DNA of 64,000 nt from positions 83,891 to 147,890 of the forward strand of contig JADFNM010000001.1 in the NCBI GenBank assembly GCA_022563395.1, written 5' to 3'. This stretch comes from Patescibacteria group bacterium (GTDB lineage: Bacteria; Patescibacteriota; Minisyncoccia; Minisyncoccales; UBA10102). Shown piece by piece: positions 4,393 through 36,702 of the stretch; the first letter of the stretch is position 1; each line of letters begins with the position of its first letter. Below the pieces are notes generated by a model. That model was not told the origin of the DNA. It ran no database searches and saw nothing but the letters and a program-made list of their open reading frames with translations. A program made the translations under genes and the position numbers.

Positions 4393-4452
4393 CCCCGCCC
4401 TCTATGCTGTCGGAGTGATAAGTAGGTCATCCAAACAGCTTAGAGGGCGGGG
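4393..4452 (+). terminator. GC-clamped long hairpin (copy 1) followed by TTTGTGTT; terminator-like repeat
   Basis: CCCCGCCCTCTA...TAGAGGGCGGGG forms a 12-bp clamp with an imperfect extension. The same element recurs at 6668-6766. Confidence 0.6.
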
Positions 4453-4463
4453 TTTGTGTTGGC

Positions 4464-6667: not shown

Positions 6668-6766
6668 CCCCGCCCTCTATGCTGCCGGAATGATGTCGTT
6701 GCGTTTATTGCAAAGATGAACCAGCGCAATGATAAGTAGGTCATTCAGACGGCTTAGAGGGCGGGG
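6668..6766 (+). terminator. GC-clamped long hairpin (copy 2, with 39-nt insertion) followed by TTTTGCTTT
   Basis: It has the same arms as 4393-4452. An extra 39 nt at 6695-6733 sits in the loop, flanked by AATGAT direct repeats. Confidence 0.55.
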
Positions 6767-6804
6767 TTTTGCTTTCCGATAACTTTTTTTGTTACAATAT
6801 ACCA

Positions 6805-7380: not shown

Positions 7381-7658
7381 ATGCGCTGAGCTTCTTGCTT
7401 CAGGAGTGGTCCTTCGTATTCTCCACTGTGGGCAGAGCTGCCTTGGTAGGAAGGTTGTTTTTGGTCTAAATGAAGTTTAATGATTGCCTCGTCATCCGTA
7501 GTTGTGGCGTAGAGGTGAAATCGTGGGTATCTTCTGCCCGTAAGAGACCGAAAAAACCGGAGTTCACCGGTTCTGCTGTCTTGTCCGTCTGGGGCATACC
7601 TACATTTCCTCATGATATTGAGAAGGTGTTCCTTTTTAAGAGAGATTGTGAATTTCAT
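7365..7658 (-). CDS. Hypothetical conserved-looking small protein (97 aa)
   Basis: I chose the start at MKFTISLKK because the longer ORF-track start (7733) would overlap tRNA-Pro. I recognised no family. Confidence 0.45.
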   Translation of the reverse strand: MKFTISLKKEHLLNIMRKCRYAPDGQDSRTGELRFFRSLTGRRYPRFHLYATTTDDEAIIKLHLDQKQPSYQGSSAHSGEYEGPLLKQEAQRILNLV

Positions 7659-7692
7659 GTATAAACTGCTTGGCTTGATAAAATCACCCTTG

Positions 7693-7763
7693 TCGGGGAG
7701 CCGGGAATCGGACCCGGGCTGTACGCACCCCATGCGTACGTACTACCATTATACTACTCCCCG
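7693..7763 (-). tRNA. tRNA-Pro (anticodon GGG)
   Basis: Hand-folded cloverleaf: CGGGGAG/CTCCCCG acceptor, TACGC-ATGGGGT-GCGTA anticodon arm, CCGGG-TCCGATT-CCCGG T arm. No encoded CCA, and the T-loop has C at position 55. Confidence 0.8.
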
Positions 7764-12105: not shown

Positions 12106-12312
12106 ATGGACTTGGAAGAATTAAAACGCATACTGCAAAAAGATAAGGGAAAGATTATCATTGTTGAAAACGGAAAGCCCGTGATGATAATTCTCCCCTA
12201 CGAAAATCAGGACTTGCATCATAGCCAAGAGGAGGCAGTTGAACCTCCTTTGGAGGAAGAAGAGATGGGGCCTGTTCCTGGGGAGTTGACAATTGACGAT
12301 TTGCCGCTATAA
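12106..12312 (+). CDS. Small acidic hypothetical protein with weak Phd/YefM-like N-terminus
   Basis: MDLEELKRILQKDKGKIIIVENGKPVMIILPYENQ followed by an acidic tail. No partner toxin gene is present. Confidence 0.4.
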   Translation: MDLEELKRILQKDKGKIIIVENGKPVMIILPYENQDLHHSQEEAVEPPLEEEEMGPVPGELTIDDLPL

Positions 12313-12429
12313 TTGGAACATTGTCAATTAACGAGCAGTAGCGAGTATAATTGGAACATTGTCAATTAACGAGCAGTAGCGAGTATAATTGGAACATTGT
12401 CAATTAACGAGCAGTAGCGAGTATAATTG
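12308..12429 (+). repeat. Perfect 38-bp tandem repeat x3 plus 8-nt partial fourth copy
   Basis: The unit TATAATTGGAACATTGTCAATTAACGAGCAGTAGCGAG starts at 12308, 12346 and 12384, with a partial copy at 12422. Copy 1 overlaps the upstream stop codon. Confidence 0.95.
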
Positions 12430-13705: not shown

Positions 13706-14050
13706 ATGCCTCCGACAAAGCAAAAAGCAGAAAAACTCTTGCCATTGCAGCAAAAGCTGAGAATAAAGATCTCAGCCTACGACCATAAGGTCATTGACGC
13801 TTCCTCAAAGCAGATCATTGATACTGTTCTCAGATATGGATGCGAGGCAGTAGGTCCTGTTCCCTTGCCAACGGAAATTAAGAAGTATACGGTGAATCGC
13901 TCTTCTTTTGTGCATAAGGACTCAAGGGAACAGTTTGAGATGAGGGTGCACAAGAGAATCATAGACATTCTCAACCCCAGCCAGAAGGTGATTGAGGCCT
14001 TAACCAGTCTCAACCTTCCTGCCGGCGTTGACATCGAAATCAAAATGTAG
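13706..14050 (+). CDS. rpsJ: 30S ribosomal protein S10
   Basis: [20 protein letters not shown]...[11 protein letters not shown] is a typical S10. Confidence 0.95.
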
Positions 14051-14068
14051 CTAGAGAATTGCACTCAT

Positions 14069-14187
14069 CCTAAATGTAATTAAGGAATCCTTAGTTTCAT
14101 TTAGGAGATATGTGCAAGAATCAGTACTGCTTAAACGAGATTTAAGCAAACCAAAGAATCGCCAAACAGGCGGTTTTTTGGTAGAAT
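14069..14187 (+). repeat. Full composite intergenic repeat (palindrome A + tail + X2 + hairpin/T-tract/-10 module)
   Basis: Module A at 14069-14105, AGATATGTG at 14106-14114, CTTAAACGAGATTTAAG at 14130-14146, GGCGGTTTTTTGGTAGAAT at 14169-14187. Confidence 0.85.
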
Positions 14188-14193
14188 AAAAAT

Positions 14194-14907
14194 ATGAAGC
14201 TAGAGAACAAAACCGCATTAATAACTGGGGGTTCGCAAGGAATTGGTAAGGCTATTGCTGGGAGGTTTATTAGGGAAGGTGCAAAGGCCATAGTTTTTGA
14301 TGTTAAAAAGCCAGACTACGAGGCAGAATTTTATCAAGTCGATATACGAGAAGAAGAACAAATCAAAGCAGCTTTTGAACAAATCAAAAGTCTAGATATT
14401 CTCGTCAATAATGCTGGCGTTTACTTTGAGGAGGCGGTAGAGAGCACAACAAAGAAGCAGTTGGATGACATTGTTGATACCAACATTAAGGGGACGTATT
14501 TGATGTGCACGTATGGGATTCCGCTGATTAAGAATAGTAAGGGTACTATCATTAACATCTCTTCTGGGCTTGGGTTAGTCCCCGACCCAGCTGCTCCTGC
14601 ATATTGTGCAACGAAAGCCGCTATAACCATGCTCACAAAATGCATGGCACAGGAGTATGCTGCAGAAGGAGTAAGGATAAATGCAATTCTGCCTGGTCCA
14701 ATTGATACACCGATGTTGAGGAGTGTCTTTGCTTCTGAGAAAGAATTTGATGACTATGCGAAATCGAATCCACTAGGGAAAATTGGGAAAGTAGAGGATG
14801 TTGCAAATGTTGCAGCTTTTTTGGCATCAGACGAAGCAAGCTACGTAACTGGAAGTTTGTATACGGTTGATGGAGGAGAGTCTTCATCAAGCCTGCACTC
14901 TAAATAA
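14194..14907 (+). CDS. Short-chain dehydrogenase/reductase (FabG-like)
   Basis: TGGSQGIG cofactor motif, NNAG, and a YxxxK catalytic motif (YCATK). Confidence 0.85.
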   Translation: MKLENKTALITGGSQGIGKAIAGRFIREGAKAIVFDVKKPDYEAEFYQVDIREEEQIKAAFEQIKSLDILVNNAGVYFEEAVESTTKKQLDDIVDTNIKGTYLMCTYGIPLIKNSKGTIINISSGLGLVPDPAAPAYCATKAAITMLTKCMAQEYAAEGVRINAILPGPIDTPMLRSVFASEKEFDDYAKSNPLGKIGKVEDVANVAAFLASDEASYVTGSLYTVDGGESSSSLHSK

Positions 14908-25808: not shown

Positions 25809-26548
25809 TTGTCGTTAAATCAAAACAAGATATTCGAGAGATGCGGGATGGAGGTGCAATCCTCGCCCGCATTTTAGATAGGGTTGCCACTGCGGTGAAT
25901 CCTGGAGTGACAACCAAGGAGCTGGATGCTGTAACCAGAAAGCTCATCTTGGGGGCTGAAGCTGAGACTGCGTTTTTAGGATATCAAGGGTTTCCTGGGG
26001 TTGTGTGCACTGCAGTGAATGAAGAAGGAGTGCATGTTCCGCCTTCTCAAAGAAAGCTCCGAGAGGGAGACATCCTTACCTTAGACATGGGCCTTAAATG
26101 GAAGGGGTGGTATTTGGATATGGCCCGCACCCTTCCTGTCGGAGAGGTTAATCAAGAAAAACAGCACTTGATTAAGGTTACCAAAAAGGCCTTGAATCTT
26201 GGTATTACAAAAGCGCGAGTGGGGGATCGCTTAGGTGATATTGCAAGCACCATCCAAGAGTATGTTGAAAGCAATGGGTATAATGTGGTGCGCGAGCTTT
26301 GCGGGCACGGCATTGGCAGGGAACTTCACGAAGATCCCAAGGTATTAAACTATGGTAAAGCTCATACCGGCAAAAAGCTAAAGGAAGGCATGGTTATTGC
26401 TATTGAGCCCATGGTAACGGTGGGAGATTGGAAGCTGGTCTTGGCAAAAGATGGCCATAGCTATAACACCAAAGATGGTTCTCTGTTTTGCCATTTTGAA
26501 GATACTATTGCCATTACCAGAAGAGGACCTGTGGTGCTCACAAGGTAG
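25805..26548 (+). CDS. map: Type I methionine aminopeptidase
   Basis: LCGHGIGRELHEDP and the metal-ligand pattern. It starts with GTG overlapping the adk stop. Confidence 0.92.
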   Translation: MIVVKSKQDIREMRDGGAILARILDRVATAVNPGVTTKELDAVTRKLILGAEAETAFLGYQGFPGVVCTAVNEEGVHVPPSQRKLREGDILTLDMGLKWKGWYLDMARTLPVGEVNQEKQHLIKVTKKALNLGITKARVGDRLGDIASTIQEYVESNGYNVVRELCGHGIGRELHEDPKVLNYGKAHTGKKLKEGMVIAIEPMVTVGDWKLVLAKDGHSYNTKDGSLFCHFEDTIAITRRGPVVLTR

Positions 26549-26569
26549 AATCTGGTACAATAGGGCAAT

Positions 26570-27013
26570 ATGCAAGAAGCCTTGTTCACCTTTCTTGTTG
26601 CAGCTTCTCCGGTTGTAGAACTACGGGGGGCTATTCCCTTGGCTTTACTCGTCTATGAATTGCCTCTTTGGCAGGCTTTTTTCTTGTCTGTTGCAGGGAA
26701 TATGGTTCCGGTGCTTCTTTTGCCTTTTCTTGGAGCTTTGAGCGGTGAACTTTCGCGTCGCTTTTCCATCTTTGAGCGATATTTTACCTGGTTGTTCTCT
26801 AAAACAAGTAGGAACAAAAAGAGGATGTTTGAGATATTCCGGGATTTTGCCCTTGTGGTGTTTGTGGCAATTCCCTTGCCGTTCACCGGGGCTTGGACCG
26901 CCGTGGTGGCGGCGTTCGTGTTTGGGATTCCGTTTCGCCGGGCATTCCCTCTTATCCTGTTTGGGGTTATAATGGCCGCGATCATTGTGTCTCTACTGAC
27001 AACGCTATGGTAG
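26570..27013 (+). CDS. Small membrane protein, COG2426 / small multidrug export-like
   Basis: VELRGAIPLAL motif and 4 TM helices. Confidence 0.6.
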   Translation: MQEALFTFLVAASPVVELRGAIPLALLVYELPLWQAFFLSVAGNMVPVLLLPFLGALSGELSRRFSIFERYFTWLFSKTSRNKKRMFEIFRDFALVVFVAIPLPFTGAWTAVVAAFVFGIPFRRAFPLILFGVIMAAIIVSLLTTLW

Positions 27014-27115
27014 TATTAAAGGTAGCGGCCATTTTGTCCCCATAGTTAGTAAGGATTAGGGGACAATAATAGCTGGAGTTGTGGTAAGTATGATTACACT
27101 TGGTATACCAAAGCT

Positions 27116-27796
27116 ATGAAACCCATCATCATTGCAAACTGGAAAATGAATCCAGGTACTCTCAGGCAGGCAAAAACCTTGTTTTCTGCTGCACAGAAGG
27201 CAGCAAGATCAGGAAAGGTAGAAGTTGTGGTGTGTCCTCCTTATCCCTATCTTGCGGCCCTGCGCCAGATGACAAAAAAAGTTGCCCTGGGGGCTCAGAA
27301 TTGTTCCTGGGAGGACAAAGGTCCTCTCACGGGAGAGGTTTCCGCAAAGCAGCTCAAGGATATTGGATGCAGGTATGTCATTATAGGACATTCAGAACGA
27401 AAGAAGTACTTAGCTGAAACGTTGGGCATGACACGAGCGAAAGTCCAAGCTGCTTTAAGAGCGGGATTGAGTGTTATCTTGTGCGTTGAGAATGCGAGAG
27501 AGCTTCAGATGATAATGAAAAAAACCAAGAGTTTTAAAAACATTCTGGTGGTGTTTGAGCCGTCTTCTGCAATCAGCACGCAGGGAGGTACGCGTGTTAC
27601 GCCAGAAGATATTGCAAACATGGTTCAGACAATGAAAAAGGTGGCAGGAAGAAACGTTCCCGTATTGTACGGAGGGAGCGTGGATGCAAAAACCATCCGG
27701 CATATTCTCTTGCTGGGAAAGGTGCAGGGAGCTTTGGTGGGAGCTGCTTCCTTGGAGCCAAAGGAATTTGCCACCCTTGTCAAAAATGCGCTTTAA
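27116..27796 (+). CDS. tpiA: Triosephosphate isomerase
   Basis: IIANWKMN, IIGHSERK, YGGSV motifs. Confidence 0.92.
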   Translation: MKPIIIANWKMNPGTLRQAKTLFSAAQKAARSGKVEVVVCPPYPYLAALRQMTKKVALGAQNCSWEDKGPLTGEVSAKQLKDIGCRYVIIGHSERKKYLAETLGMTRAKVQAALRAGLSVILCVENARELQMIMKKTKSFKNILVVFEPSSAISTQGGTRVTPEDIANMVQTMKKVAGRNVPVLYGGSVDAKTIRHILLLGKVQGALVGAASLEPKEFATLVKNAL

Positions 27797-27814
27797 GAGT
27801 ATACTGGGTAGATT

Positions 27815-28327
27815 ATGGATGTTATATCTCAAGGAACATTTTACAACCCCACAAAAGGCCAAATGGATTTACAAGGGGTTCTCAGAGAACTTATAGGGTA
27901 TCTCAAGGAAAAACCAGAACGCTCCTATGAAATTATTGTAGGATGCGATTCTTCTGCTGTGGAAGAGCCCACCTTTCCCGTGGTTATTGTTGTCTTGCGC
28001 AAAAAGGAAGGAGGCAGGTTCTTTTTAACCAAAGTGAGATACCCCGCACCCCGCAAGTTCTACAACATCCATGACCGGATTTTAGAAGAGGTGCTCTTGT
28101 CTTGTCAGCTTGCTTTGTGGTTGAGAGAGAACTTTGCTCTTAAAGCAGAAAAAGAAGATCTTAAGGTGCCCTATGAGCTTCAGTACATTCATGCTGATGT
28201 GGGAGAAAACGGTGTAACCAGAGACATGATTAAGGAGGTGACAGGACTCATTCGGGGCAATGGATTTACTCCAATGATAAAGCCCCGATCCTTTGCTGCC
28301 TCTAGTGTAGCTGACCGCTTTTCCTAA
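27815..28327 (+). CDS. YkuK/DUF458-like RNase H-fold protein
   Basis: IIVGCDSS... and IHADVGENGVT resemble DUF458 motifs. Confidence 0.55.
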   Translation: MDVISQGTFYNPTKGQMDLQGVLRELIGYLKEKPERSYEIIVGCDSSAVEEPTFPVVIVVLRKKEGGRFFLTKVRYPAPRKFYNIHDRILEEVLLSCQLALWLRENFALKAEKEDLKVPYELQYIHADVGENGVTRDMIKEVTGLIRGNGFTPMIKPRSFAASSVADRFS

Positions 28328-28331
28328 CATT

Positions 28332-28409
28332 GCCTAAATCTCATTTAAGCAATATCAATAGTGCCTAAATGAAATTAAGGATTCCTTAATTTCATTTAGG
28401 AGATATTCG
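28332..28409 (+). repeat. Intergenic repeat: reversed X2 unit + 37-nt palindrome A + tail
   Basis: GCCTAAATCTCATTTAAGC at 28332-28350, module A at 28364-28400, AGATATTCG at 28401-28409. Confidence 0.85.
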
Positions 28410-28419
28410 CTTTCGCCAT

Positions 28420-29106
28420 ATGGCTTCGCTCAAGCGCAACAGCAGTATTCTTGATTACCAGGAGTTTGTACGGCAGGTGTACGGTTTAAACAACGACCGC
28501 TACTTTAGCACTACAGACATTCTTACCCAGGTGCAGCGCTTTTGCATGCGCGGCCTTAAGGGAATCCGCAAGGGCGAGAGACAAAAGACAACACTCAATT
28601 TTTTGATTGCCCTCTGCTGGTTTATGTCTTTAATGAATCAGTTGCATATTGATCTCGCAGCTGCAACTTGGCAAAGGTTTCCCAGCCTCTGTTCATACTG
28701 CGGGAGTTGTCCGTGTGTTTGCAAAAAACAGAAGGTAAAGAAACGAAAAAGGGTTATAGCAAGAAACGGCAAGAAGCCAAAAACCATTGCAGAGTTTCAG
28801 CGCATGTTCTCTGTTATTTATCCTAAAGAGAGTAGAACCCTTGAACATGCGGGTATCCATCTGGGAGAGGAAATGGGGGAGCTGGCCGAAGCAGTGTTGG
28901 CATACCGAGGGGGAAGGAATGAAGAGGACTTTGAAAAAGTAGCTGAAGAGGGCGCAGATTTTCTTTCCTGCCTGTTTGGTGTATGTAATTCATGGGATAT
29001 TGAGGTTGCAAAGGAGCTTGCAGCAATGTTTCCTGAGAACTGCCATGTGTGCAAAAAGGCTCCATGCGAGTGTAGTTTTCAGTCCATCACCGATTTTAAG
29101 TCCTAA
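28420..29106 (+). CDS. MazG-like NTP pyrophosphohydrolase-domain protein with Cys knuckles
   Basis: HLGEEMGELAEAV...EEGADFL has MazG-type EExxE/D spacing. It carries CSYCGSCPCVC and CHVCKKAPCEC motifs. Confidence 0.55.
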   Translation: MASLKRNSSILDYQEFVRQVYGLNNDRYFSTTDILTQVQRFCMRGLKGIRKGERQKTTLNFLIALCWFMSLMNQLHIDLAAATWQRFPSLCSYCGSCPCVCKKQKVKKRKRVIARNGKKPKTIAEFQRMFSVIYPKESRTLEHAGIHLGEEMGELAEAVLAYRGGRNEEDFEKVAEEGADFLSCLFGVCNSWDIEVAKELAAMFPENCHVCKKAPCECSFQSITDFKS

Positions 29107-29145
29107 AAAGTTATTCACATTGACGAAAAATCTTAGCCAATAATT

Positions 29146-29263
29146 CCTTAATGAAATTAAGGATTCCTAAATTTCATTAAGGAGATATGCGAAGAACCAT
29201 TAGCTCCTAAACGAGATTTAAGCAAGCCAAAGAATCGCTAGGAAGGCGGTTTTTTGATAGGAT
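29146..29263 (+). repeat. Full composite intergenic repeat
   Basis: An A variant at 29146-29182, AGATATGCG at 29183-29191, CCTAAACGAGATTTAAG at 29206-29222, GGCGGTTTTTTGATAGGAT at 29245-29263. Confidence 0.85.
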
Positions 29264-29270
29264 AGAGTGG

Positions 29271-31109
29271 ATGAGTAAAGAGAATAAGAAAGTTGAGTTC
29301 CCATTATTAGTATATGACGGAGATTGCACATTTTGTCGCGCATGGGTTGATTACTGGAAAAGTTTAACAGGAGATAGAGTTGCATATGCTCCTTTTCAAG
29401 AGGTAGCAGAACAGTTTCCAACAATCCCCCTCAAGGAATTTAAAAATTCGGTTCAGCTCATTACTCCAAAAGGAAAGATATACAGTGGAGCTCATGGGGT
29501 ATTTCGTACCTTGGCCTTGGGTAAGGCAGTAAAGTGGCTGCTTTTTATGTATCTTAGGGTTCCTGGTTTTGCATTCTTTTCTGAACTCTTTTACAGGATT
29601 ATTGCACGTCACCGCGGTCTTGCCTATTTTTTAACGAAAGTTTTTTGGGGAAAGCAGCTTATCCGTCCCTCATACATTCTTGTTCGGTGGCTCTTTTTTA
29701 GACTCTTCGGAGTCGTTTACCTTACTGCATTTATCTCGCTCTTCCTGCAGTTGTCGGGTCTTGTGGGGAGCAATGGCATTTTGCCTGCCAGCAATTTTTT
29801 GGAGGTACTGATAGATAATCTGGGACCCAAAGCCTTTTGGTTTTTTCCTACGGTAGCCTGGTTGAATGTAAGCGATCTATTTTTGCACCTGGTAGCCCTT
29901 GTGGGCGCAGTTTTATCACTCCTTCTTATCTTTGGGATAACCCGTACTCGTCTGTTGGCTGCCCTCTGGTTTTTGTATTTATCTCTTTTTACAGTTGGGC
30001 AGGTCTTTTTGTCATTTCAGTGGGATATTTTACTTTTGGAGGTAGGGTTCTTGGCCATACTCTTGACCCTGTCTCAAAATGTTATCTGGCTGTTTCGTTG
30101 GCTGTTGTTTAAATTTATCCTGATGTCTGGCGCAGTCAAGCTCTTAAGCGGGGATATTATCTGGAGAAATTTTACTGCCCTCAATTTTCATTATCAAACA
30201 CAACCCCTCCCAACTCCTTTTGCCTGGTATATGCACCAGCTCCCAGAATGGTTTCAAAAGTTTTCCGTTGGTTTTACGTTTTTTGTGGAACTTGGGATTG
30301 TGTTTTTGATTTTTGCACCCCGTCGCCTCAGACTCGTTGCAGCCTTTTTTATCGCAGGCAGCCAAGTCTTGATACTTTTGACCGGAAACTACACCTTCTT
30401 TAACTTCCTCACCATTATTCTTTGTGTGTTTTTACTTGACGACGCTTTTCTCAGCCGTATCTCTCCAAAGAAGTTTGCAGAAAGAATTGTCAAACGTTTT
30501 TCTCCACGAATCATACCGGGCCCCGGACAAGTTGCTTTAGCAACCATTGCCTTTGTCCTTGTGTTCTTCAGTATTCTTCAGATGACCCTCATGTTTTCTG
30601 GTTCCTTGCCAAGCTCAGCTCAAGGTATGTTGCGCATTATGCAACCTTTTCACATTGTGAATACCTATGGGCTGTTTGCAGTCATGACTACCTCAAGGCC
30701 AGAACTCATTATTGAGGGCTCCAATGATGGAGAGCACTGGCAAGAGTATGAATTCAAGTATAAACCAGGCGATCTGAGAAAACCACCTGGCTTCGTAGCT
30801 CCTCACCAGCCTCGTTTAGATTGGCAAATGTGGTTTGCGGCATTACATGCACAAAGAGCTTTGGAAAGTGGCATAGAAGAGGGGAGGTATAATCTATGGT
30901 TTGTAAACTTTATGGTTAGGCTACTGCAAGATTCTCCGCAGGTCTTAAAACTCTTGGCCAAAAACCCCTTTCCTGAATCTCCGCCACGCTATGTAAGAGC
31001 ATTGTTGTATGAGTACCAATTCACTGATTTTGATACGAAGAAGCGAGAGGGTACGTGGTGGAAAAGGGAATTGAAAGAAATATATCTTCCTTCTTTATCA
31101 TTGCAATGA
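29271..31109 (+). CDS. Fusion protein: DCC-type thiol-disulfide oxidoreductase (DUF393) + lipase-maturation-factor (LMF) family membrane domain
   Basis: N-terminus has VYDGDCTFCRAWV (DUF393). The rest is polytopic, with HQPRLDWQMWFAAL typical of LMF. Confidence 0.7.
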   Translation: MSKENKKVEFPLLVYDGDCTFCRAWVDYWKSLTGDRVAYAPFQEVAEQFPTIPLKEFKNSVQLITPKGKIYSGAHGVFRTLALGKAVKWLLFMYLRVPGFAFFSELFYRIIARHRGLAYFLTKVFWGKQLIRPSYILVRWLFFRLFGVVYLTAFISLFLQLSGLVGSNGILPASNFLEVLIDNLGPKAFWFFPTVAWLNVSDLFLHLVALVGAVLSLLLIFGITRTRLLAALWFLYLSLFTVGQVFLSFQWDILLLEVGFLAILLTLSQNVIWLFRWLLFKFILMSGAVKLLSGDIIWRNFTALNFHYQTQPLPTPFAWYMHQLPEWFQKFSVGFTFFVELGIVFLIFAPRRLRLVAAFFIAGSQVLILLTGNYTFFNFLTIILCVFLLDDAFLSRISPKKFAERIVKRFSPRIIPGPGQVALATIAFVLVFFSILQMTLMFSGSLPSSAQGMLRIMQPFHIVNTYGLFAVMTTSRPELIIEGSNDGEHWQEYEFKYKPGDLRKPPGFVAPHQPRLDWQMWFAALHAQRALESGIEEGRYNLWFVNFMVRLLQDSPQVLKLLAKNPFPESPPRYVRALLYEYQFTDFDTKKREGTWWKRELKEIYLPSLSLQ

Positions 31110-31189
31110 TTTTCTACAAGCATTTCATTAAGGTCTGCCTGCCGCAGGCAGGAAATATGCAAGGGAATCAGTAAAAAAAGTTATTCACA

Positions 31190-31217
31190 TTGACGAGAAA
31201 GCTTGCAAGCATATGAT
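31190..31217 (+). promoter_or_regulatory. Putative promoter TTGACG-16-TATGAT
   Basis: -35 at 31190-31195 lies inside the 26-nt direct repeat; -10 at 31212-31217. Confidence 0.5.
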
Positions 31218-31382
31218 GTAAAGAAGAGTACATGCCGGGGAGTGGTCGCCCCCTGCACCTTGATATTTCTCATCTTGAGAACATGCCAAAAAAGAAAAAA
31301 GGCAAGAAGAAAAAGAAATAATATTTTTCTTGGAACAAAAAGAGAGAGCTGCAAAGTTACTCTCTTTTTGTTATTATGGTGT

Positions 31383-32114
31383 ATGAGCGGTAAACTTCGT
31401 CTTGCTCTTCTCATATCTGGGGGTGGGAGTACAACGCAAGCAATTATCCGGGCCTCAAAATCAGGACAACTTGCGGTGCAGCCCGTTTGTGTAATTGCGA
31501 GCACGAATGAAGCGGGGGGAATTAAGCTGGCTCTCAAAGAAGAGATTGCGCCAAAAGACGTTCTTGTTCTCAAACCCGAGGAGTATGTTTCCCCCGAAGC
31601 ATTTGGGGAAGCAATCCTTGCTGCGTGCAGGGCACGAGGCGTAGATATCATTGGGCAATATGGCTGGATGCCAAGAACTCCAGCGAATGTGATTGCGGCT
31701 TTTTTGGGCAGGATGATAAACCAACATCCAGGGCCGCTTGATCCTGGAAGACCTGATTTCGGCGGGAGAGGAATGTTTGGAAGGCGTGTTCATGCAGCGC
31801 GTCTCTGGTTTGTGCGTAAAACCGGGCAAGACTTCTGGACGGAAGCAACAGCTCAATTGGTCGCAGAGCAGTTTGACAAGGGAGCGCTTCTAAAAACTCA
31901 ACGACTTAAGATTCTGCCCGATGATGATCCTAAACTCCTGCAAAGGCGCCTTCTTTCAGTGGAGCATGAAGTACAGATAGCAACACTCCAGGATTTTGCT
32001 CTGGGGCAGGTCAAAGTACTCTTGCCCCGTAAGTATCCTCTTGTGCCTCCCGACAAGGAATCTCTTTTGAAAGAGGCAAAACAGATTGCATGCGCCCGCT
32101 TCCCGCATGGATAG
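31383..32114 (+). CDS. Formyltransferase-family protein (PurN-like)
   Basis: LALLISGGGSTTQAII...INQHPGPL resembles GAR transformylase. I chose the ATG at 31383, because the ORF-track N-terminus covers the leader. Confidence 0.55.
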   Translation: MSGKLRLALLISGGGSTTQAIIRASKSGQLAVQPVCVIASTNEAGGIKLALKEEIAPKDVLVLKPEEYVSPEAFGEAILAACRARGVDIIGQYGWMPRTPANVIAAFLGRMINQHPGPLDPGRPDFGGRGMFGRRVHAARLWFVRKTGQDFWTEATAQLVAEQFDKGALLKTQRLKILPDDDPKLLQRRLLSVEHEVQIATLQDFALGQVKVLLPRKYPLVPPDKESLLKEAKQIACARFPHG

Positions 32115-32159
32115 TAGAAGAAGTGACAGCGGGTGCGTTTTATGGCATAATCAAAAACC

Positions 32160-33215
32160 ATGAACAGAAAGAAAAAGAAAGTATTTGTTGCAATGTCGGG
32201 CGGTGTGGATAGTTCGGTCGCTGCGGCTCTCTTGAAAAGAGCCGGTTTTAATGTTGTTGGAATATATATGAAGTGCTGGGTAGAAGGCTTAGCCTGTACG
32301 ACACAGGAAGACGAGCGCTCAGCAAGATTGGCTGCCCAGCATCTTGGTATTTCCTTTTATGTTTGGAACTTTATTGACCAATATAAAGAAAAAGTGGTGG
32401 AGTACATGCTCAAAGGATATGAGGCAGGAGTTACCCCCAACCCGGATATTATGTGCAACCGAGAAATCAAGTTTGGCCTGTTTTTCAAAAAGACAATGGA
32501 GCTGGGAGCAGACCATGTTGCTACCGGACACTACGTGAGGGTAAAGAAAAAGAATACAGGATATGCTCTACTGAAAGGGAAGGATTCAGACAAAGATCAG
32601 TCATACTTTTTGGCCATGATAAGCCCCAAGGTATTAGAAAAGACCTTGTTTCCTATCGGTGAATACACAAAGACCCAGGTACGGGCTTTTGCAAGAAAGA
32701 TTGGACTCCCCAATGCAGAGCGCAAAGATAGTCAGGGTATATGTTTTGTGGGAAAGGTAGAGATTGGGGATTTTTTGCGTTTGCACATCCCGCAAAAAGC
32801 AGGTGTCATTGTTTCTTCTTCTGGTGAGGTCTTGGGAGAGCATGACGGCGCCCATTATTATACCTTAGGACAGCGACAGGGTCTTGGATTGGCTGGTGGG
32901 CCTTACTATGTTGCGAAAAAGGATATTGAAACCAATACCCTACAGGTAACGAGGGAAGAACAGGATATTATGACATCCGAGCTTTTGGTAAAGAATGTGA
33001 ACTGGTTTTTGCCTCTCAAGGAAAAGACTGGTATTTCGGCGAAGTTTCGTTATCGACAAGAGGATGTTTTTGTAACCATTGAAGAACTCAAAGATGGTTC
33101 AATTCGAGTAATCCCAGAAGTTCCCCAGCGAGCCATTACTCCGGGGCAATTTGCGGTGTTTTACCATGGAGAGGAGCTTTTAGGCGGTGGAGTTATCTTT
33201 ACCGAAGTGATATAG
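32160..33215 (+). CDS. mnmA: tRNA 2-thiouridine(34) synthase
   Basis: VAMSGGVDSSVAA PP-loop, 351 aa. Confidence 0.93.
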   Translation: MNRKKKKVFVAMSGGVDSSVAAALLKRAGFNVVGIYMKCWVEGLACTTQEDERSARLAAQHLGISFYVWNFIDQYKEKVVEYMLKGYEAGVTPNPDIMCNREIKFGLFFKKTMELGADHVATGHYVRVKKKNTGYALLKGKDSDKDQSYFLAMISPKVLEKTLFPIGEYTKTQVRAFARKIGLPNAERKDSQGICFVGKVEIGDFLRLHIPQKAGVIVSSSGEVLGEHDGAHYYTLGQRQGLGLAGGPYYVAKKDIETNTLQVTREEQDIMTSELLVKNVNWFLPLKEKTGISAKFRYRQEDVFVTIEELKDGSIRVIPEVPQRAITPGQFAVFYHGEELLGGGVIFTEVI

Positions 33216-33223
33216 TTTGCCAT

Positions 33224-35044
33224 ATGGGGGCAAACGAGATACGAGAAAAGTATCTGAACTTTTTTAAAGAGCGGGGGCACAGCATTATTCCCTCTTCTTC
33301 TTTAGTTCCAGAAAATGATCCCACCACCTTGTTTGTGGGTTCTGGCATGCAGCCGCTGATTCCCTACCTTTTGGGCGTAAAGCACCCCATGGGCTCTCGT
33401 CTGGTAAACTCACAAAAGAGTTTTCGGGCAGAAGACATAGAAGAGGTGGGCGACAATCGCCACACCACTTTTTTTGAGATGCTCGGGAACTGGTCGCTGG
33501 GCGACTATTTTAAGGAAGAACAGCTTTCTTGGTTTTTCTCTTTTTTAACAGATGAGATGGGCTTGGACCCTCAAAAACTCTACGTCACCGTGTTTTCTGG
33601 AGACACAGAGAACAATATTCCCAAAGACGAGGAGTCCATTGCCATTTTAAAACGCCTATTTCAAGAAAGGGGGATTGAGGCAAAGGAGGGGGAGCGCATC
33701 TTTGCCTATGGGGTCGAAAAAAACTGGTGGAGCAGATCAGGAATCCCTTCCAATATGCCAGTAGGTGAGCCGGGAGGCCCTGATTCTGAGGTTTTTTACG
33801 ACTTTGGCACTCCACATGATATAAGGTATGGCGAAAAGTGTCATCCAAACTGCGACTGTGGAAGGTTCCTTGAAATAGGGAACTCCGTATTTATGGAATA
33901 CAAAAAGAAGGACGACGGGAGTTTTGAAAAACTCAAACAGCGCAACGTAGACTTTGGCGGGGGATTGGAAAGGATTACGGCTGCAGTGAACAATGAGCCA
34001 GATGTATTCAAGGGAGATCTACTATTTCCTCTCATTCAAAAAGCAGCAGAGCTTTCTGGCAGGAGCTACGAGAAACACGTCAATTCTTTTCGCGTCATTG
34101 CAGATCATGTGAGAGGAGCTGCCTTTATGATTGGAGATGGCGTTATTCCTTCTAATACAGAGCGCGGATATATTGTTAGAAGATTGCTTCGCCGTGCAGT
34201 GCGCCACGCTGATTTAATAGGAATGGAAGAGGGAAATCTGGCCCTGTTCGTCGATCCTTTACTTGCCGCATATCAAAAAGTATACCCCGAGGTTGCAGAA
34301 CGCAGAGAAGAGATTGTGCAGCATATCCAAGAAGAGGAAAAGAGGTTTCGCATCACTCTTCAAAATGGATTGAAGGAATTTGAGAAACTTTCTGGAAACA
34401 ATATTTCTGGCAAGGAGGCTTTTGACCTCTATCAGACCTATGGATTTCCTCTCGACGTTACCCTAGAGCTTGCAAGGGAAAAAGGAGTTACGGTAGATAC
34501 TACAAGTTTTGAGCAAGAGTTTTTAAAGCATCAAGAAGTTTCCCGGACTGCAGCAGCAGGAAGGTTTAAAGGAGGTCTTGCTGATACCTCCTATGAAACA
34601 ACAAAACTTCATACCACAAACCATTTATTGCTTGCGGCTCTCCGCAAAGTACTTGGGCAAAACGTGCACCAGCGGGGAAGCAACATTACGGCAGAACGCA
34701 TCCGCCTGGATTTCTCTCATGGGCAAAAGATGACTCCAGAGGAGATACAACAGGTTGAGGATTTGACGAATGAAAAAATTCAAGAGGGTCTGGATATGGT
34801 CAGAAAAGAAATGTCAAAAGAGGAAGCAGTAAAATTGGGGGCCGAAATGGAGTTTGGGATAAAGTATGGAGATGTGGTGTCTGTGTATGTCGCACAAGAT
34901 AAAAAAGGGAATGTATTTTCCAAAGAGTTTTGTGGTGGGCCCCATGTGAAAAGTACCTCAGAGCTCGGCAAGTTTAGAGTTGTGAAGGAAGAGGCAGTCT
35001 CTGCTGGCGTGCGCCGCATCCGCGCAGTATTAGAACCTAAATGA
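33224..35044 (+). CDS. alaS: Alanine--tRNA ligase, short form (606 aa, no C-Ala/DHHA1 region)
   Basis: IREKYLNFFKERGH...FVGSGMQP, editing HxxxH (HTTNHLL) and CGGPHV. Confidence 0.92.
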   Translation: MGANEIREKYLNFFKERGHSIIPSSSLVPENDPTTLFVGSGMQPLIPYLLGVKHPMGSRLVNSQKSFRAEDIEEVGDNRHTTFFEMLGNWSLGDYFKEEQLSWFFSFLTDEMGLDPQKLYVTVFSGDTENNIPKDEESIAILKRLFQERGIEAKEGERIFAYGVEKNWWSRSGIPSNMPVGEPGGPDSEVFYDFGTPHDIRYGEKCHPNCDCGRFLEIGNSVFMEYKKKDDGSFEKLKQRNVDFGGGLERITAAVNNEPDVFKGDLLFPLIQKAAELSGRSYEKHVNSFRVIADHVRGAAFMIGDGVIPSNTERGYIVRRLLRRAVRHADLIGMEEGNLALFVDPLLAAYQKVYPEVAERREEIVQHIQEEEKRFRITLQNGLKEFEKLSGNNISGKEAFDLYQTYGFPLDVTLELAREKGVTVDTTSFEQEFLKHQEVSRTAAAGRFKGGLADTSYETTKLHTTNHLLLAALRKVLGQNVHQRGSNITAERIRLDFSHGQKMTPEEIQQVEDLTNEKIQEGLDMVRKEMSKEEAVKLGAEMEFGIKYGDVVSVYVAQDKKGNVFSKEFCGGPHVKSTSELGKFRVVKEEAVSAGVRRIRAVLEPK

Positions 35045-35141
35045 AATTAAGGAATCCTTAATTTCATTTAGGAGATATGTGGAGAACCAGTAGCTCCTAA
35101 ACGAGATTTAAGCAAACCAAAGAATCGCTAGAGGGATGGTG
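35036..35141 (+). repeat. Composite intergenic repeat overlapping the alaS stop codon
   Basis: Module A at 35036-35072 includes CCT AAA TGA of alaS. AGATATGTG at 35073-35081, X2 at 35096-35112, and a degenerate third module. Confidence 0.85.
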
Positions 35142-35148
35142 ATTACTA

Positions 35149-35177
35149 TTGATGAATTTCTCGATTTACTCTAGAAT
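35149..35177 (+). promoter_or_regulatory. Promoter TTGATG-17-TAGAAT, 6 nt before ATG 35184
   Basis: Hexamers at 35149-35154 and 35172-35177. Confidence 0.55.
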
Positions 35178-35183
35178 AGGACT

Positions 35184-36437
35184 ATGGCAAATTGGAAGAT
35201 TCAAGATATTGCCCCCCCCAAAAAGCTCAAAAAAAGGGCAGAGGAACTTTTTGATAATGAAGAACCAAAGGCGCGTAATACGCGTGAAAGAAGGCACTTG
35301 CCAGTCTGGATACTAAAGGGAGTCCTGCCGCTTTTTGTGCTCTTGGTATTTTCCTTTGGAGCCGTACACTTTTTCTTTACTACAGCTAAGGTTACCTTAT
35401 GGCCGGAAACCAGACAGATAAAGATTTTGGAACCCATTGTAGCTGAGGTGGGAAGGGAACAATTGAACAAAGAAGAGCGCATCATTCCTGCTCGCACACT
35501 GACAGAGGAGAAAAAAGCAACGCGACTGTTTCCAGCTTCCAGCAACACCATAAAGGTGAATCGCTCGTCTGGAACCATTCGGGTGTTTAACGCATACACG
35601 ACCTCTCCCTATACTTTAATCGCAAAGACCCGTTTTATATCAGAAGAGGGAAAGCTCTTTCGTACTCTCGTGCGGATTACCATACCTGGGTCTACTAACG
35701 AGGGGCCGGGATTTATCGACATTGAAGTGGTGGCAGGAGAATCCGGAGAAGAGTATAATGTTGGACCCTCAAACTTTTCAGTACCAGGGCTTTCGGGTTC
35801 CGCCGCGTTCACTGCAATCTATGCTGAATCTACAGAGTCTATGACCGGGGGGTCAGAACGTGAGGTGTCCGTTGTTTCAGAGGACGATATTGAAAAAGCA
35901 AAGCAATCTTTGATTGAAGAGCTGAAGCTAAAGGCAACCCAAGATTTACTCTCTCGCGTCCCAGGGCATATGATGGCAACCAAAGACTCAGTTTTAGTTG
36001 AGGTGACGGAAGCTGATTCCCTGGTGCAAGCTGGAGCCGAGTTAGATCAGTTCAACGTAAGTGTTTCTTTGACTGCCACTGCATACCTATTTTCGAGAGC
36101 TGATCTGGATATTCTGGTGAACGATTTTCTTTTGCATGCGCTCCAAGACGGAGAGCGCATTGCGGAGGATAAAACCGTAACCTACTTTGAGCAGATTACA
36201 GTGGATAAAGATGCGAATACAGCTGCTTTGGAGCTTGGCGTTACAGCTACAACATATCAGTATGTAGACCCAACAGAGCTTAAAATCAAGCTCAGGGGAA
36301 AGTCAAAGGATGAGGCAGAAAGTATTCTTGCGACCTACAGTGTCTTTCGCCAGACAGACCTTTCCCTATGGCCTTTTTGGATTTCCTCCTTGCCTGGCGG
36401 CGTGGATAAGCTTGAAATTCAGGTGATTGTTGACTAA
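35184..36437 (+). CDS. Hypothetical single-pass membrane protein (417 aa)
   Basis: Basic N-terminus, one TM helix, and a large extracytoplasmic domain. I recognised no family. Confidence 0.55.
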   Translation: MANWKIQDIAPPKKLKKRAEELFDNEEPKARNTRERRHLPVWILKGVLPLFVLLVFSFGAVHFFFTTAKVTLWPETRQIKILEPIVAEVGREQLNKEERIIPARTLTEEKKATRLFPASSNTIKVNRSSGTIRVFNAYTTSPYTLIAKTRFISEEGKLFRTLVRITIPGSTNEGPGFIDIEVVAGESGEEYNVGPSNFSVPGLSGSAAFTAIYAESTESMTGGSEREVSVVSEDDIEKAKQSLIEELKLKATQDLLSRVPGHMMATKDSVLVEVTEADSLVQAGAELDQFNVSVSLTATAYLFSRADLDILVNDFLLHALQDGERIAEDKTVTYFEQITVDKDANTAALELGVTATTYQYVDPTELKIKLRGKSKDEAESILATYSVFRQTDLSLWPFWISSLPGGVDKLEIQVIVD

Positions 36438-36477
36438 TAGAACTTACTTTGGTATACTCTAAACCGCAATTTCACGC

Positions 36478-36702
36478 ATGAAGAACGATAAACAGGACGA
36501 GCTTGTAATGCAGGGTGAGGTGTTGGAAACCCTTCCAAGTTTAAAGTTTAAGGTGCGCTTGGAGGATGGAAGCGAGGTATTAGCATATCTTGCAGGAAAA
36601 CTCAGGAAATTCAGGATCCGCATTTTGGCGGGCGATAAGGTTTCTGTTGAAATGAGCCCGTATGATGCCACCAAGGGGAGGATAGTCTATCGAAATAAAT
36701 AG
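36478..36702 (+). CDS. infA: Translation initiation factor IF-1
   Basis: [45 protein letters not shown]... Confidence 0.95.

Follow-up and report, generated by a model that had tools for sequence, protein, structure and literature searches.

Short direct repeats on both sides of a gene may betray the way in which it entered a genome. In a 64,000-nt stretch of DNA from a Patescibacteria group bacterium (contig JADFNM010000001.1 of assembly GCA_022563395.1, positions 83,891-147,890 of the forward strand; hereafter the window, numbered from its first letter), such repeats bracket a gene coding for a fusion of DCC1-like (DUF393) and LMF1 domains. The gene lies behind a MazG-like gene and ahead of the promoter of a leader, whose conserved place is in front of mnmA (tRNA 2-thiouridylase). 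We show below that the arrangement very probably arose by insertion of an LMF cassette between the MazG-like gene and the leader promoter, accompanied by duplication of the target.

A single pair of direct repeats flanks the LMF gene

The repeat, AAAAAGTTATTCACATTGACGA(A/G)AAA, is found on the + strand at positions 29105-29130 and 31175-31200. As described in the initial annotation of this DNA, its two copies share 22 identical nucleotides before they differ; an A/G mismatch at position 23 is the only one. They are the sole matches to the 26-mer in the window, even when up to three mismatches are allowed, and none is expected by chance (100 shuffles). A repeat search lengthened the pair to 30 nt (29105-29134 and 31175-31204, 28/30 identity, spacing 2070 nt), and when the two junctions were aligned locally, the resulting score of 52 was matched in 0 of 2000 shuffles. 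The duplicated stretch measures 26 to about 33 nt, the upper bound comprising the TAA stop codon, a 2-nt difference in the A-run and the sequence through CTT. The variant carried by the window copies is CACATTGACGARAAKCTT, and the long form of the repeat is AAAAAGTTATTCACATTGACGARAAKCTT.

With two copies in 64 kb, the 26-mer does not have the distribution of a dispersed repeat, be it of the repetitive extragenic palindrome (REP) or of the miniature inverted-repeat transposable element (MITE) type. Presence at many loci, named beforehand as the finding that would speak against an insertion footprint, is not seen for the 26-30-mer within the window; its core recurs across the phylum.

Copy 1 (29105-29134 in its extended form, + strand) begins inside the stop codon of the MazG-like open reading frame (ORF; TAA at 29104-29106), its first two bases overlapping the stop. 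It comprises an A-tract, the DnaA-box-like 9-mer TTATTCACA (29111-29119), a -35 hexamer TTGACG (29120-29125) and 9 nt of the spacer that follows, and is an orphan upstream half of a promoter: a promoter search called none at this copy, there being no acceptable -10 downstream. Copy 2 (31175-31204, + strand) is an intact upstream promoter half, with TTATTCACA at 31181-31189 and TTGACG at 31190-31195. It is preceded by TAA and an A-run; on either side of the insert, the repeat region takes in the end of the target gene. Between the extended copies lies a unique insert of about 2.04 kb (29135-31174), in which all the components listed in the initial annotation, namely a composite repeat, the DUF393-LMF gene and a repeat remnant with a GC hairpin (31122-31174), are present.

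Relatives carry an empty site

Relatives were found through contigs carrying increasingly distant MazG-like homologues. Seven of them (designated L128, L129, L130, L009, L102, L013 and L133) have the motif together with the promoter, and in five (L128, L129, L130, L009 and L133) the MazG-like stop codon is followed at once by a single AAA(A/G)GTTATTCACAATTGACAC, a 16-nt spacer and a -10 hexamer. In L128 (MazG-like identity 76%), the stop codon precedes one motif, the 16-nt spacer, TATTAT and the leader, and the contig ends after the leader hairpins; in L129 (74%), stop, one motif and TATGAT are present, and the contig breaks off where the leader begins. L130 (72%) has stop, motif, leader, a mini-ORF, a terminator, a PurN-like gene (Formyl_trans_N) and MnmA, and no LMF gene. 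In L009 (71%), the order is stop, motif, leader, mini-ORF, terminator and MnmA, and L133 (64%) shows the same arrangement. The leader is found wherever the contig of a relative extends that far. The search that had been proposed, for an empty site between the MazG-like and PurN-like genes, is thereby answered by L130, which has exactly the predicted configuration, and the idea that the promoter once stood directly behind the MazG-like gene is supported by the single copies in all five lineages.

L102 and the remnant in L013 are also single-copy, and the filled state occurs only in the window lineage and in one further relative, L131. Since the outgroup L133 still has the single-copy arrangement, the single copy is ancestral. 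All contigs encoding identical proteins carry the filled site, and both copies of the repeat where the contig reaches.

L102 (JAUYJZ010000031.1) differs from the other relatives in having no MazG-like gene, its motif and leader lying between an RNaseH-like gene and MnmA. Here, at L102:5353-5450, GC-rich hairpins are followed by a short stretch that aligns to the last bases of the MazG-like gene (ACCGATT...) and then by motif and leader. To judge from this alignment, L102 seems to have lost its MazG-like gene through a deletion that left the promoter in place.

Both copies arose within this lineage

When aligned to the relatives, the left junction of the window matches them from the MazG-like 3' end through the motif, and the right junction from the motif through the spacer, the -10 and the leader. 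Both copies, on the other hand, depart from the relatives in the same way. They lack one A (CACATTGAC versus CACAATTGAC in relatives, CACA-TTGAC) and carry G at position 6 of the -35, each of these states being seen in 0 of 7 relatives, and their spacer starts with A(A/G)AA(T/G)CTT versus CTGCAYTTT-like sequences in the relatives. The states of the relatives' copy, CACAATTGACAC and the CTGCAYTTT spacer, are found in neither window copy. Derived states common to both copies and lacking in every relative mark them as paralogues that originated within this lineage. The shared spacer start is not accounted for by functional convergence, as it lies outside the conserved motif. The MazG-like gene and the leader are both closest to L128, as would be expected if the insertion simply took place in an ancestor resembling L128.

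The closest cassette-bearing relative, L131 (ERZ23499499 scaffold_3352), encodes LMF, PurN-like and MnmA proteins that are 88%, 87% and 87% identical to those of the window, with 74-77% identity at fourfold-degenerate sites, and has in common with the window the repeat module in front of the LMF gene and the bases immediately behind its stop codon. Since L131 shares the cassette and its flanks, the insertion predates the split between the window lineage and L131.

L131 itself (L131:1-1710) bears a 243-nt deletion with ATTA microhomology, which took away everything from the repeat remnant through copy 2 and the promoter to the leader with its mini-ORF and terminator; its LMF and PurN-like genes are now 26 nt apart. 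The L131 LMF protein has 501 aa and is devoid of the N-terminal DCC1 domain, and a different promoter-like insert lies upstream of its gene.

The insert and its cargo

The 5' end of the insert is formed by a composite dispersed intergenic repeat (29139-29241, + strand) made of two hairpin units (families D1, D3 and D4). The composite matches 35036-35131 at 92% identity, and the same module occurs at 14040-14215 and 34990-35175. Just 5' of the LMF start codon (29236-29263, + strand), a terminator-like hairpin CGCTAGGAAGGCGG with T6 is followed by an extended -10-like element, TGATAGGAT; judging by its sequence, this segment would be the cassette's own expression signal. The arrangement of the upstream region, GGCGGTTTTTTG(G/A)TAG(A/G)AT, recurs at 14175-14200.

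The cargo of the insertion is the DCC1-like (DUF393)-LMF1 fusion ORF of 612 aa (29271-31109, + strand; Pfam PF04134, PF06762 and PF25179), the sole long ORF between the repeats. The LMF family is widespread, 7989 of 8000 scored candidates matching at E<=1e-10, and an identical LMF protein (P0121) is annotated in 'Patescibacteria group bacterium' on a 671-kb contig. At its 3' end (31122-31174, + strand), the insert carries a shortened unit of the dispersed repeat (repeats D9 and I9), consisting of ATTTCATTAAGG, a GC hairpin and then AAATATGCAAGGGAATCAGTA. The GC hairpin, CTGCCTG-CCG-CAGGCAG, interrupts the unit at 31135-31151. The unit is cut in the middle and ends with TA, a possible microhomology of 2-3 nt with the TAA of the target.

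Neither the insert nor the neighbouring genes, which are of housekeeping type, encode a transposase, an integrase or a tyrosine/serine recombinase, as judged from ORFs, Pfam and gene tables. Terminal inverted repeats are also missing: no arms pair across the insert ends (29131-29150 versus 31155-31174; search of 29000-31400), and the sole end-related inverted pair (I9, 12 nt) corresponds to the hairpin unit of the dispersed repeat, in direct orientation with the flanks.

A homologue of the LMF protein, 65% identical, was found in a related lineage (L132) in other gene context, with TGGTAGGAT upstream; the LMF homologues P0123, P0124 and P0126 are 65-67% identical. L132 also carries the hairpin repeat family, and a TGnTAGGAT element stands upstream of its LMF gene as it does in the cassette. 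Given that homologue, repeat family and element all occur in L132, the cassette looks native to the clade and not like the product of a distant transfer.

The hairpin repeat, CCTAAATGAAATTAAGGAWTCCTTAATTTCATTTAGGAGATAT, is truly dispersed: its intergenic units of about 57 nt are present in at least 10 copies in 64 kb, with starts at 14062, 28357, 29139, 35029, 41977, 46778, 47713, 52808, 54514 and 62455. A second hairpin (CTCCTAAACGAGATTTAAGCAA), the terminator-like GGCGGTTTTTT and an extended -10 often accompany the units. Besides the window, L129, L130, L131 and L132 carry the family, which might play a part in termination or in RNA processing, or might be MITE-like.

The duplicated element: half of a predicted promoter with a DnaA-box-like module

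Copy 2 provides the -35 of a predicted sigma-70-type promoter, TTGACG-16-TATGAT (31190-31217, + strand), which agrees with the consensus at 10 of 12 positions. The -35, the 16-nt spacing and the -10 are kept in all seven relatives. The repeat (A-tract, G, TTATTCACA and TTGAC(G)) constitutes the upstream half of this promoter, and the duplicated segment is not neutral spacer but a DnaA-box-like 9-mer abutting the -35. At both copies TTATTCACA adjoins the hexamer directly; the 9-mer is invariant in 6 of 7 relatives, with one substitution in L013, and the spacers vary.

The relaxed consensus of the DnaA box is TTATNCACA. It is over-represented in the window (7 matches versus 1.9 expected), and only at the two repeat copies does a box stand beside a -35. 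In sequence, TTATTCACA fits the DnaA-box consensus TTATCCACA (PMC8203912).

Public metagenomes and genomes were scanned for the 20-nt core as a pattern. Many hits were chance or coding ones. Among the hits (L017-L127) there are about 20 distinct low-GC Patescibacteria-like contexts, in which A-tract, box and TTGACA are followed by a good -10 at 16-18 nt. The genes behind these promoters are unrelated to the locus described here and include ribonucleotide reductase (RNR) genes (L122, L125) and NrdD-like ones (L087, L112). RNR genes are classical DnaA targets (PMC8203912), and the combination of box and -35 may, as far as its sequence context indicates, mark a DnaA regulon in bacteria of the Candidate Phyla Radiation (CPR). 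Promoters with DnaA boxes include those of Escherichia coli dnaA and nrdAB and of Pseudomonas aeruginosa gidAB (PMC8203912, PMC13438810). With these, the promoter in the window shares a 9-mer matching TTATNCACA directly upstream of the -35, a feature also seen before the Patescibacteria RNR genes. It differs from them in its target, a leader ahead of mnmA instead of a gene for replication or nucleotide synthesis, and in its predicted box, the variant TTATTCACA.

Viral contigs were scanned for the motif as a candidate attP, and this candidate was dropped: the scan returned only an unrelated phage fragment, L136 (IMGVR_UViG_3300022540_000257), with no homologue of any window gene. This fragment, which encodes RusA and the small and large terminase subunits, contains eight TTATTCACA boxes, six of them perfect and two near-perfect, in a stretch of about 160 nt (L136:3022-3179), a cluster resembling a DnaA-box array.

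The leader, the PurN-like gene and mnmA

The promoter had been assigned to the PurN-like gene. It does exist at 31190-31217, but it is not simply the promoter of that gene, as it first drives a conserved leader; from the arrangement in relatives, it would primarily be the promoter of this leader ahead of mnmA. The leader spans 31222-31378 in the window and corresponds to L009:2463-2622, L130:1170-1322, L102:5477-5614, L133:5190-5420 and L013:7740-7960. In L009, L102, L013 and L133 the leader module precedes mnmA directly, and in the ancestral arrangement mnmA is found directly behind it.

The leader starts with hairpins (31233-31281, + strand), a GC-rich one with a conserved UGGUC loop at 31233-31257 and a second one at 31267-31281, over the ribosome-binding region of a putative mini-ORF. 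RNAfold gives -44.5 kcal/mol for 31222-31378 (z = -3.9). The sequence of the leader is kept in relatives, and covariation is weak (consensus folding of 4-7 sequences). The putative mini-ORF, MPKKKKGKKKKK plus stop (31283-31321, + strand), has AAA or AAG (Lys) at 10 of its 12 codons. Its peptide reads MAKKKKGKKKK(K) in L009, L102 and L130 and MAKKKGGKKKK in L133. Across the leader loci, the mini-ORF follows the conserved pattern M(P/A)KKKKGKKKK(K). Behind it, between the promoter and the PurN-like gene, comes an intrinsic-terminator-like hairpin (31334-31378, + strand) with perfect 13-nt arms (31334-31346/31360-31372) and then TTTTTGTT; this terminator is kept in L130, L009, L102 and L013.

The PurN-like formyltransferase ORF (31383-32114, + strand, 243 aa) belongs to Pfam PF00551 and scores 87 bits with TIGR00639 PurN versus a cut-off of 150; its start codon is the ATG at 31383, not at 31386 as annotated initially. 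The gene is present in the window, L130 and L131 only and absent from L009, L102, L013, L016 and L133. It is an accessory gene, slotted in behind the terminator. A second flanking duplication around the PurN-like gene, with TTATGG(T/C)(G/A)TA upstream of this gene compared with the sequence in front of mnmA, was considered and discarded as not significant, 608, 465 and 1780 of 2000 shuffles doing as well in the window, L130 and L131, respectively.

MnmA is encoded at 32160-33215 (+ strand; Pfam PF03054, PF20259 and PF20258). Upstream of it lies a promoter-like element of its own, GTGACA-17-CATAAT (32123-32151, + strand), with TGG upstream of the -10, and TTTT(A/G)TGGCATA(A/G)T occurs upstream of mnmA in all six aligned sequences (the window, L131, L130, L009, L102 and L013).

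MnmA thiolates U34 of tRNA-Lys, tRNA-Glu and tRNA-Gln. Because MnmA modifies tRNA-Lys(UUU) and the mini-ORF of the leader is rich in Lys codons, the leader could be an attenuator sensing the decoding of lysine codons. The order of elements expected of an attenuator, a Lys-rich short ORF followed by a terminator, is there and is conserved upstream of mnmA. The leader-peptide attenuators of trp, his and pheST have the same succession of promoter, short ORF dominated by one codon family and intrinsic terminator before the gene; the difference is that folding revealed no clear alternative antiterminator pairing here. What the folding does show is the terminator, along with A/U-rich pairing between the tail of the mini-ORF and the U-tract downstream of it; no convincing antiterminator emerged. 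A literature search for a lysine-codon leader of mnmA yielded nothing relevant. Nor did Rfam, applied to the whole window at gathering thresholds and to 29050-31450 at E<=5, contain a family for the leader or the repeats; its matches were four tRNAs elsewhere in the window and chance miRNA hits on the hairpin repeat.

A separate insertion in Wildermuthbacteria

A separate insertion at the same junction was detected in Candidatus Wildermuthbacteria (L013:6001-8000, MHTT01000027.1; also L014 and L015). Behind the full-length MazG-like gene comes a short-chain dehydrogenase (SDR) gene, which has a promoter and a terminator of its own, and then a MazG-like fragment, the motif, the leader and MnmA. 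The fragment (7569-7718) consists of the last 49 MazG-like codons with the frame intact, amounting to a duplication of about 150 nt. Its DNA identity to any MazG-like gene, including the adjacent full-length one, is 68-74%, and on the strength of these values it would seem that imported DNA was joined here to what remained of the resident gene.

Mechanism of the insertion

The following course of events would account for the present state of the window. In the ancestor, the MazG-like stop codon would have been followed directly by the A-tract, TTATTCACA, the -35, a 16-nt spacer and TATGAT, and this promoter would have driven the leader with its Lys-rich mini-ORF and terminator, ahead of mnmA alone or of mnmA with the PurN-like gene before it. 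The cassette, which measures about 2.04 kb, looks native to the clade and is made up of hairpin repeat, terminator-like hairpin, extended -10, DCC1-LMF1 gene and shortened repeat, would have entered about 9 nt downstream of the -35 hexamer; the 26-33 nt from the stop codon to the first spacer bases would have ended up on both of its sides. Copy 1 would thus keep the MazG-like stop and an orphan half-promoter, and copy 2 would restore the complete leader promoter. The earlier proposal of a cassette inserted with duplication of about 26 nt is supported by the empty sites and the shared derived states, with 26 to about 33 nt as the length. The insertion with its direction, the paralogous origin of the two copies and the lack of any recombinase gene follow from the sequences themselves.

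The joining was probably the work of illegitimate or short-homology recombination, without a dedicated transposase or integrase; it may have started from a staggered break, a template switch during replication or a short-homology anchor on the promoter motif. Because the stop codon abuts the motif with no spare bases, only events that duplicate the target would spare both units, and selection would keep only those that leave the MazG-like stop and the promoter both intact.

Several points weigh against this reconstruction. The core 20 nt of the repeat are a recurrent promoter element of Patescibacteria; part of the similarity between the copies is functionally constrained, since the core is such a conserved element, and core similarity alone is weak evidence. 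Further copies were sought in 64 kb of a genome of about 670 kb, and the left junction of L131 lies beyond the end of its contig. The mechanism is inferred, not observed, and no donor locus was found. Finally, the orphan copy shows 1 change in 26 positions versus about 4 expected under neutrality since the split from L131, to judge from the divergence at fourfold-degenerate sites, a difference that is not significant (Poisson P ~0.1, computed by hand); neither purifying selection nor gene conversion acting on the orphan copy is claimed from this value.

Among the other explanations, import anchored by short homology fares best, and we regard it as possible, though doubtful. The LMF gene would have come from a locus or a sibling genome in which it stood just upstream of the same motif; the motif would have served as the right anchor, the left end would have been joined illegitimately about 9 nt past the resident -35, and copy 2 would be a hybrid of donor and resident. 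A length of 26-30 nt is about the minimum for RecA-dependent pairing. Import is consistent with the recurrence of the motif at unrelated promoters, for instance on two contigs (L112, L122) of one Staskawiczbacteria bin, and with the clade-native repeats of the cassette. It would explain why the left edge of the duplication is the edge of the motif, and the in-frame MazG-like fragment of L013, 68-74% identical to every MazG-like gene, fits an imported segment as well.

Mosaic divergence of the MazG-like gene also speaks for import. Comparing the window with L130 at fourfold-degenerate sites, we found identity at 22/55 sites (0.40) in the MazG-like gene versus 28/46 (0.61) in the RNaseH-like and 77/107 (0.72) in the PurN-like gene (Fisher p=0.0003), so that synonymous divergence is significantly higher than in the flanks. 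Sliding nucleotide identity to L130 over 27975-32265 falls from 83-95% to 58-72% across the MazG-like gene. These sequence comparisons make recombination or allele exchange around the MazG-like gene likely within the clade. A MazG-like gene that arrived with the cassette as a foreign allele was rejected, the gene not being an outlier (62-80% in all pairs, the out-of-context L134 excluded) and L128 being the nearest relative on both flanks.

Import is opposed by the lack of a further copy of the motif in the window at up to three mismatches, and the donor arrangement, LMF gene followed by motif, was not found. In experiments on homology-facilitated illegitimate recombination, moreover, anchors are not known to be shorter than about 150 bp, which we count against it. 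The footprint is of no help here: de novo duplication and anchoring on an ectopic promoter motif both predict the same one. Campbell-type insertion-duplication and homology-facilitated illegitimate recombination, as seen in naturally transformable bacteria, resemble the present case in joining foreign or ectopic DNA by one short homologous patch and one microhomology joint, with a duplicated anchor or target, and the possible TA overlap at the right joint fits such joining. The difference is that the anchor here would have only about 26-30 nt.

One may go further and suppose that the motif (about 22 nt, box plus -35) acts as a portable homology patch, by which promoter-proximal cassettes move between loci or sibling genomes. 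We consider this unlikely. If it were true, promoter motifs would be de facto attachment sites of gene flux in streamlined genomes, and the LMF gene here and the SDR gene in Wildermuthbacteria would be examples of target-duplicating insertions at the junction of MazG-like gene and leader.

A mobile element, in comparison with insertion by illegitimate or short-homology recombination, is a highly improbable cause. The 26-mers would then be the target duplication of a transposon or MITE, or the attL and attR sites of an island whose integrase was lost or acted in trans. As in integrative islands, direct repeats do flank the insert at the 3' end of a gene, and copies of a dispersed repeat are found at both insert ends. 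However, no transposase or integrase is present in or beside the insert, terminal inverted repeats are lacking, and the flanking repeat units are in direct orientation, one of them cut in mid-unit. Target duplications made by transposases measure 2-14 bp, and the 26-33 nt observed far exceed them. In the L013 event, the cargo is another one, about 150 nt are duplicated and the left end lacks the motif. That the two events differ both in what they brought in and in how much they duplicated speaks against a site-specific enzyme and for illegitimate or short-homology recombination.

The likeness to known elements is accordingly a partial one. Insertion sequences and transposons share with our case the direct target repeats around the insert and the existence of relatives with an uninterrupted one-copy site; the window differs in the repeat length (26-33 nt versus 2-14 bp), in the absence of transposase and terminal inverted repeats, and in its cargo, just one membrane-protein gene of housekeeping type that brings a promoter of its own. 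Islands with attL and attR, including integrase-less cis-mobilisable ones, also have repeats of tens of nucleotides at the 3' end of a gene and keep the target end intact. In contrast to them, no tyrosine or serine recombinase is encoded nearby, the repeat coincides with a promoter element and not with a gene 3' end alone, and the repeat of about 150 nt in L013 is unexpected for site-specific recombination.

It is very hard to believe that the ancestor already had the cassette and that recombination between the 26-mers removed it from the relatives. Deletion between direct repeats would indeed leave one copy, and a single empty site gives no direction. Single copies are, however, found in five lineages with MazG-like identities of 64-76%, besides L102 and the L013 remnant, versus filled sites only in the window lineage and L131; the CACAATTGACAC and CTGCAYTTT states of the relatives are preserved in neither window copy, and the original duplication would still have to be explained. 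Least of all can the two 26-mers be independent instances of a common promoter motif, alike by convergence or chance: the 20-nt core with a good -10 does occur in about 20 Patescibacteria-like contexts, but the shared 1-nt deletion, the -35 G and the spacer start (variant CACATTGACGARAAKCTT) lie outside the conserved motif and are absent from relatives, each copy is orthologous to the ancestral single copy on one flank, and the chance expectation is 0, which makes this extremely improbable.

Genomic setting and significance

The MazG-like ORF (28420-29106, + strand, 228 aa) gave no hit in Pfam or NCBIfam. Its homologues, from Wildermuthbacteria, Nealsonbacteria and other Patescibacteria, are named 'MazG-like family protein' or 'NTP pyrophosphatase' in their sources, and a weak match was obtained in PDB to the nucleotide pyrophosphohydrolase 5ie9 (E=0.38). 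Contigs with identical proteins show that the region sits within a ribosomal-protein cluster, in the order L6, L18, S5, L15, SecY, Adk, Map, Sm_multidrug_ex, TIM, RNaseH-like and MazG-like, followed by LMF, PurN-like, MnmA, AlaRS, a 417-aa protein, InfA and S13.

The gene content of the map-infA interval (about 26500-36500 in the window) varies across L013, L133, L009, L016 and L129. Variable genes are PaaX_M in L013, GT2, GalT and VTT in L133, and PurS or DUF2268 upstream of the MazG-like gene in L016/L129; downstream of the MazG-like gene, an SDR, LMF or PurN-like gene may be found. In this clade the interval, and specifically the junction between the MazG-like gene and mnmA, is a gene-flux hot spot embedded in an operon region that is conserved in other respects.

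The locus presents a base-resolved gene gain in an uncultured CPR/Patescibacteria genome, with the empty site recovered from metagenomes and without mobile-element machinery. It illustrates how a genome with almost no intergenic slack accepts a gene: a promoter-bearing target is duplicated, and both neighbours stay functional. As traces of gene gain go, it is well documented but fairly ordinary, and is made interesting by the lack of mobile machinery, by the coincidence of the duplication with a DnaA-box-like promoter module and by the leader before mnmA. The by-products are maybe more useful than the repeat itself, as the promoter architecture of box plus -35 and the Lys-codon leader before mnmA provide testable regulatory hypotheses for organisms in which regulation is almost wholly uncharted.

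Other repeats in the window

Two further repeats were noticed in the window. At 12308-12429 there is a tandem repeat with a 38-nt period (TATAATTGGAACATTGTCAATTAACGAGCAGTAGCGAG), containing overlapping perfect 46-nt matches (family D8). A 45-nt direct repeat, CGGAGTGATAAGTAGGTCATCCAAACAGCTTAGAGGGCGGGGTTT, occurs at 4411-4455 and 6725-6769, its copies being 89% identical and 2.3 kb apart (family D16).

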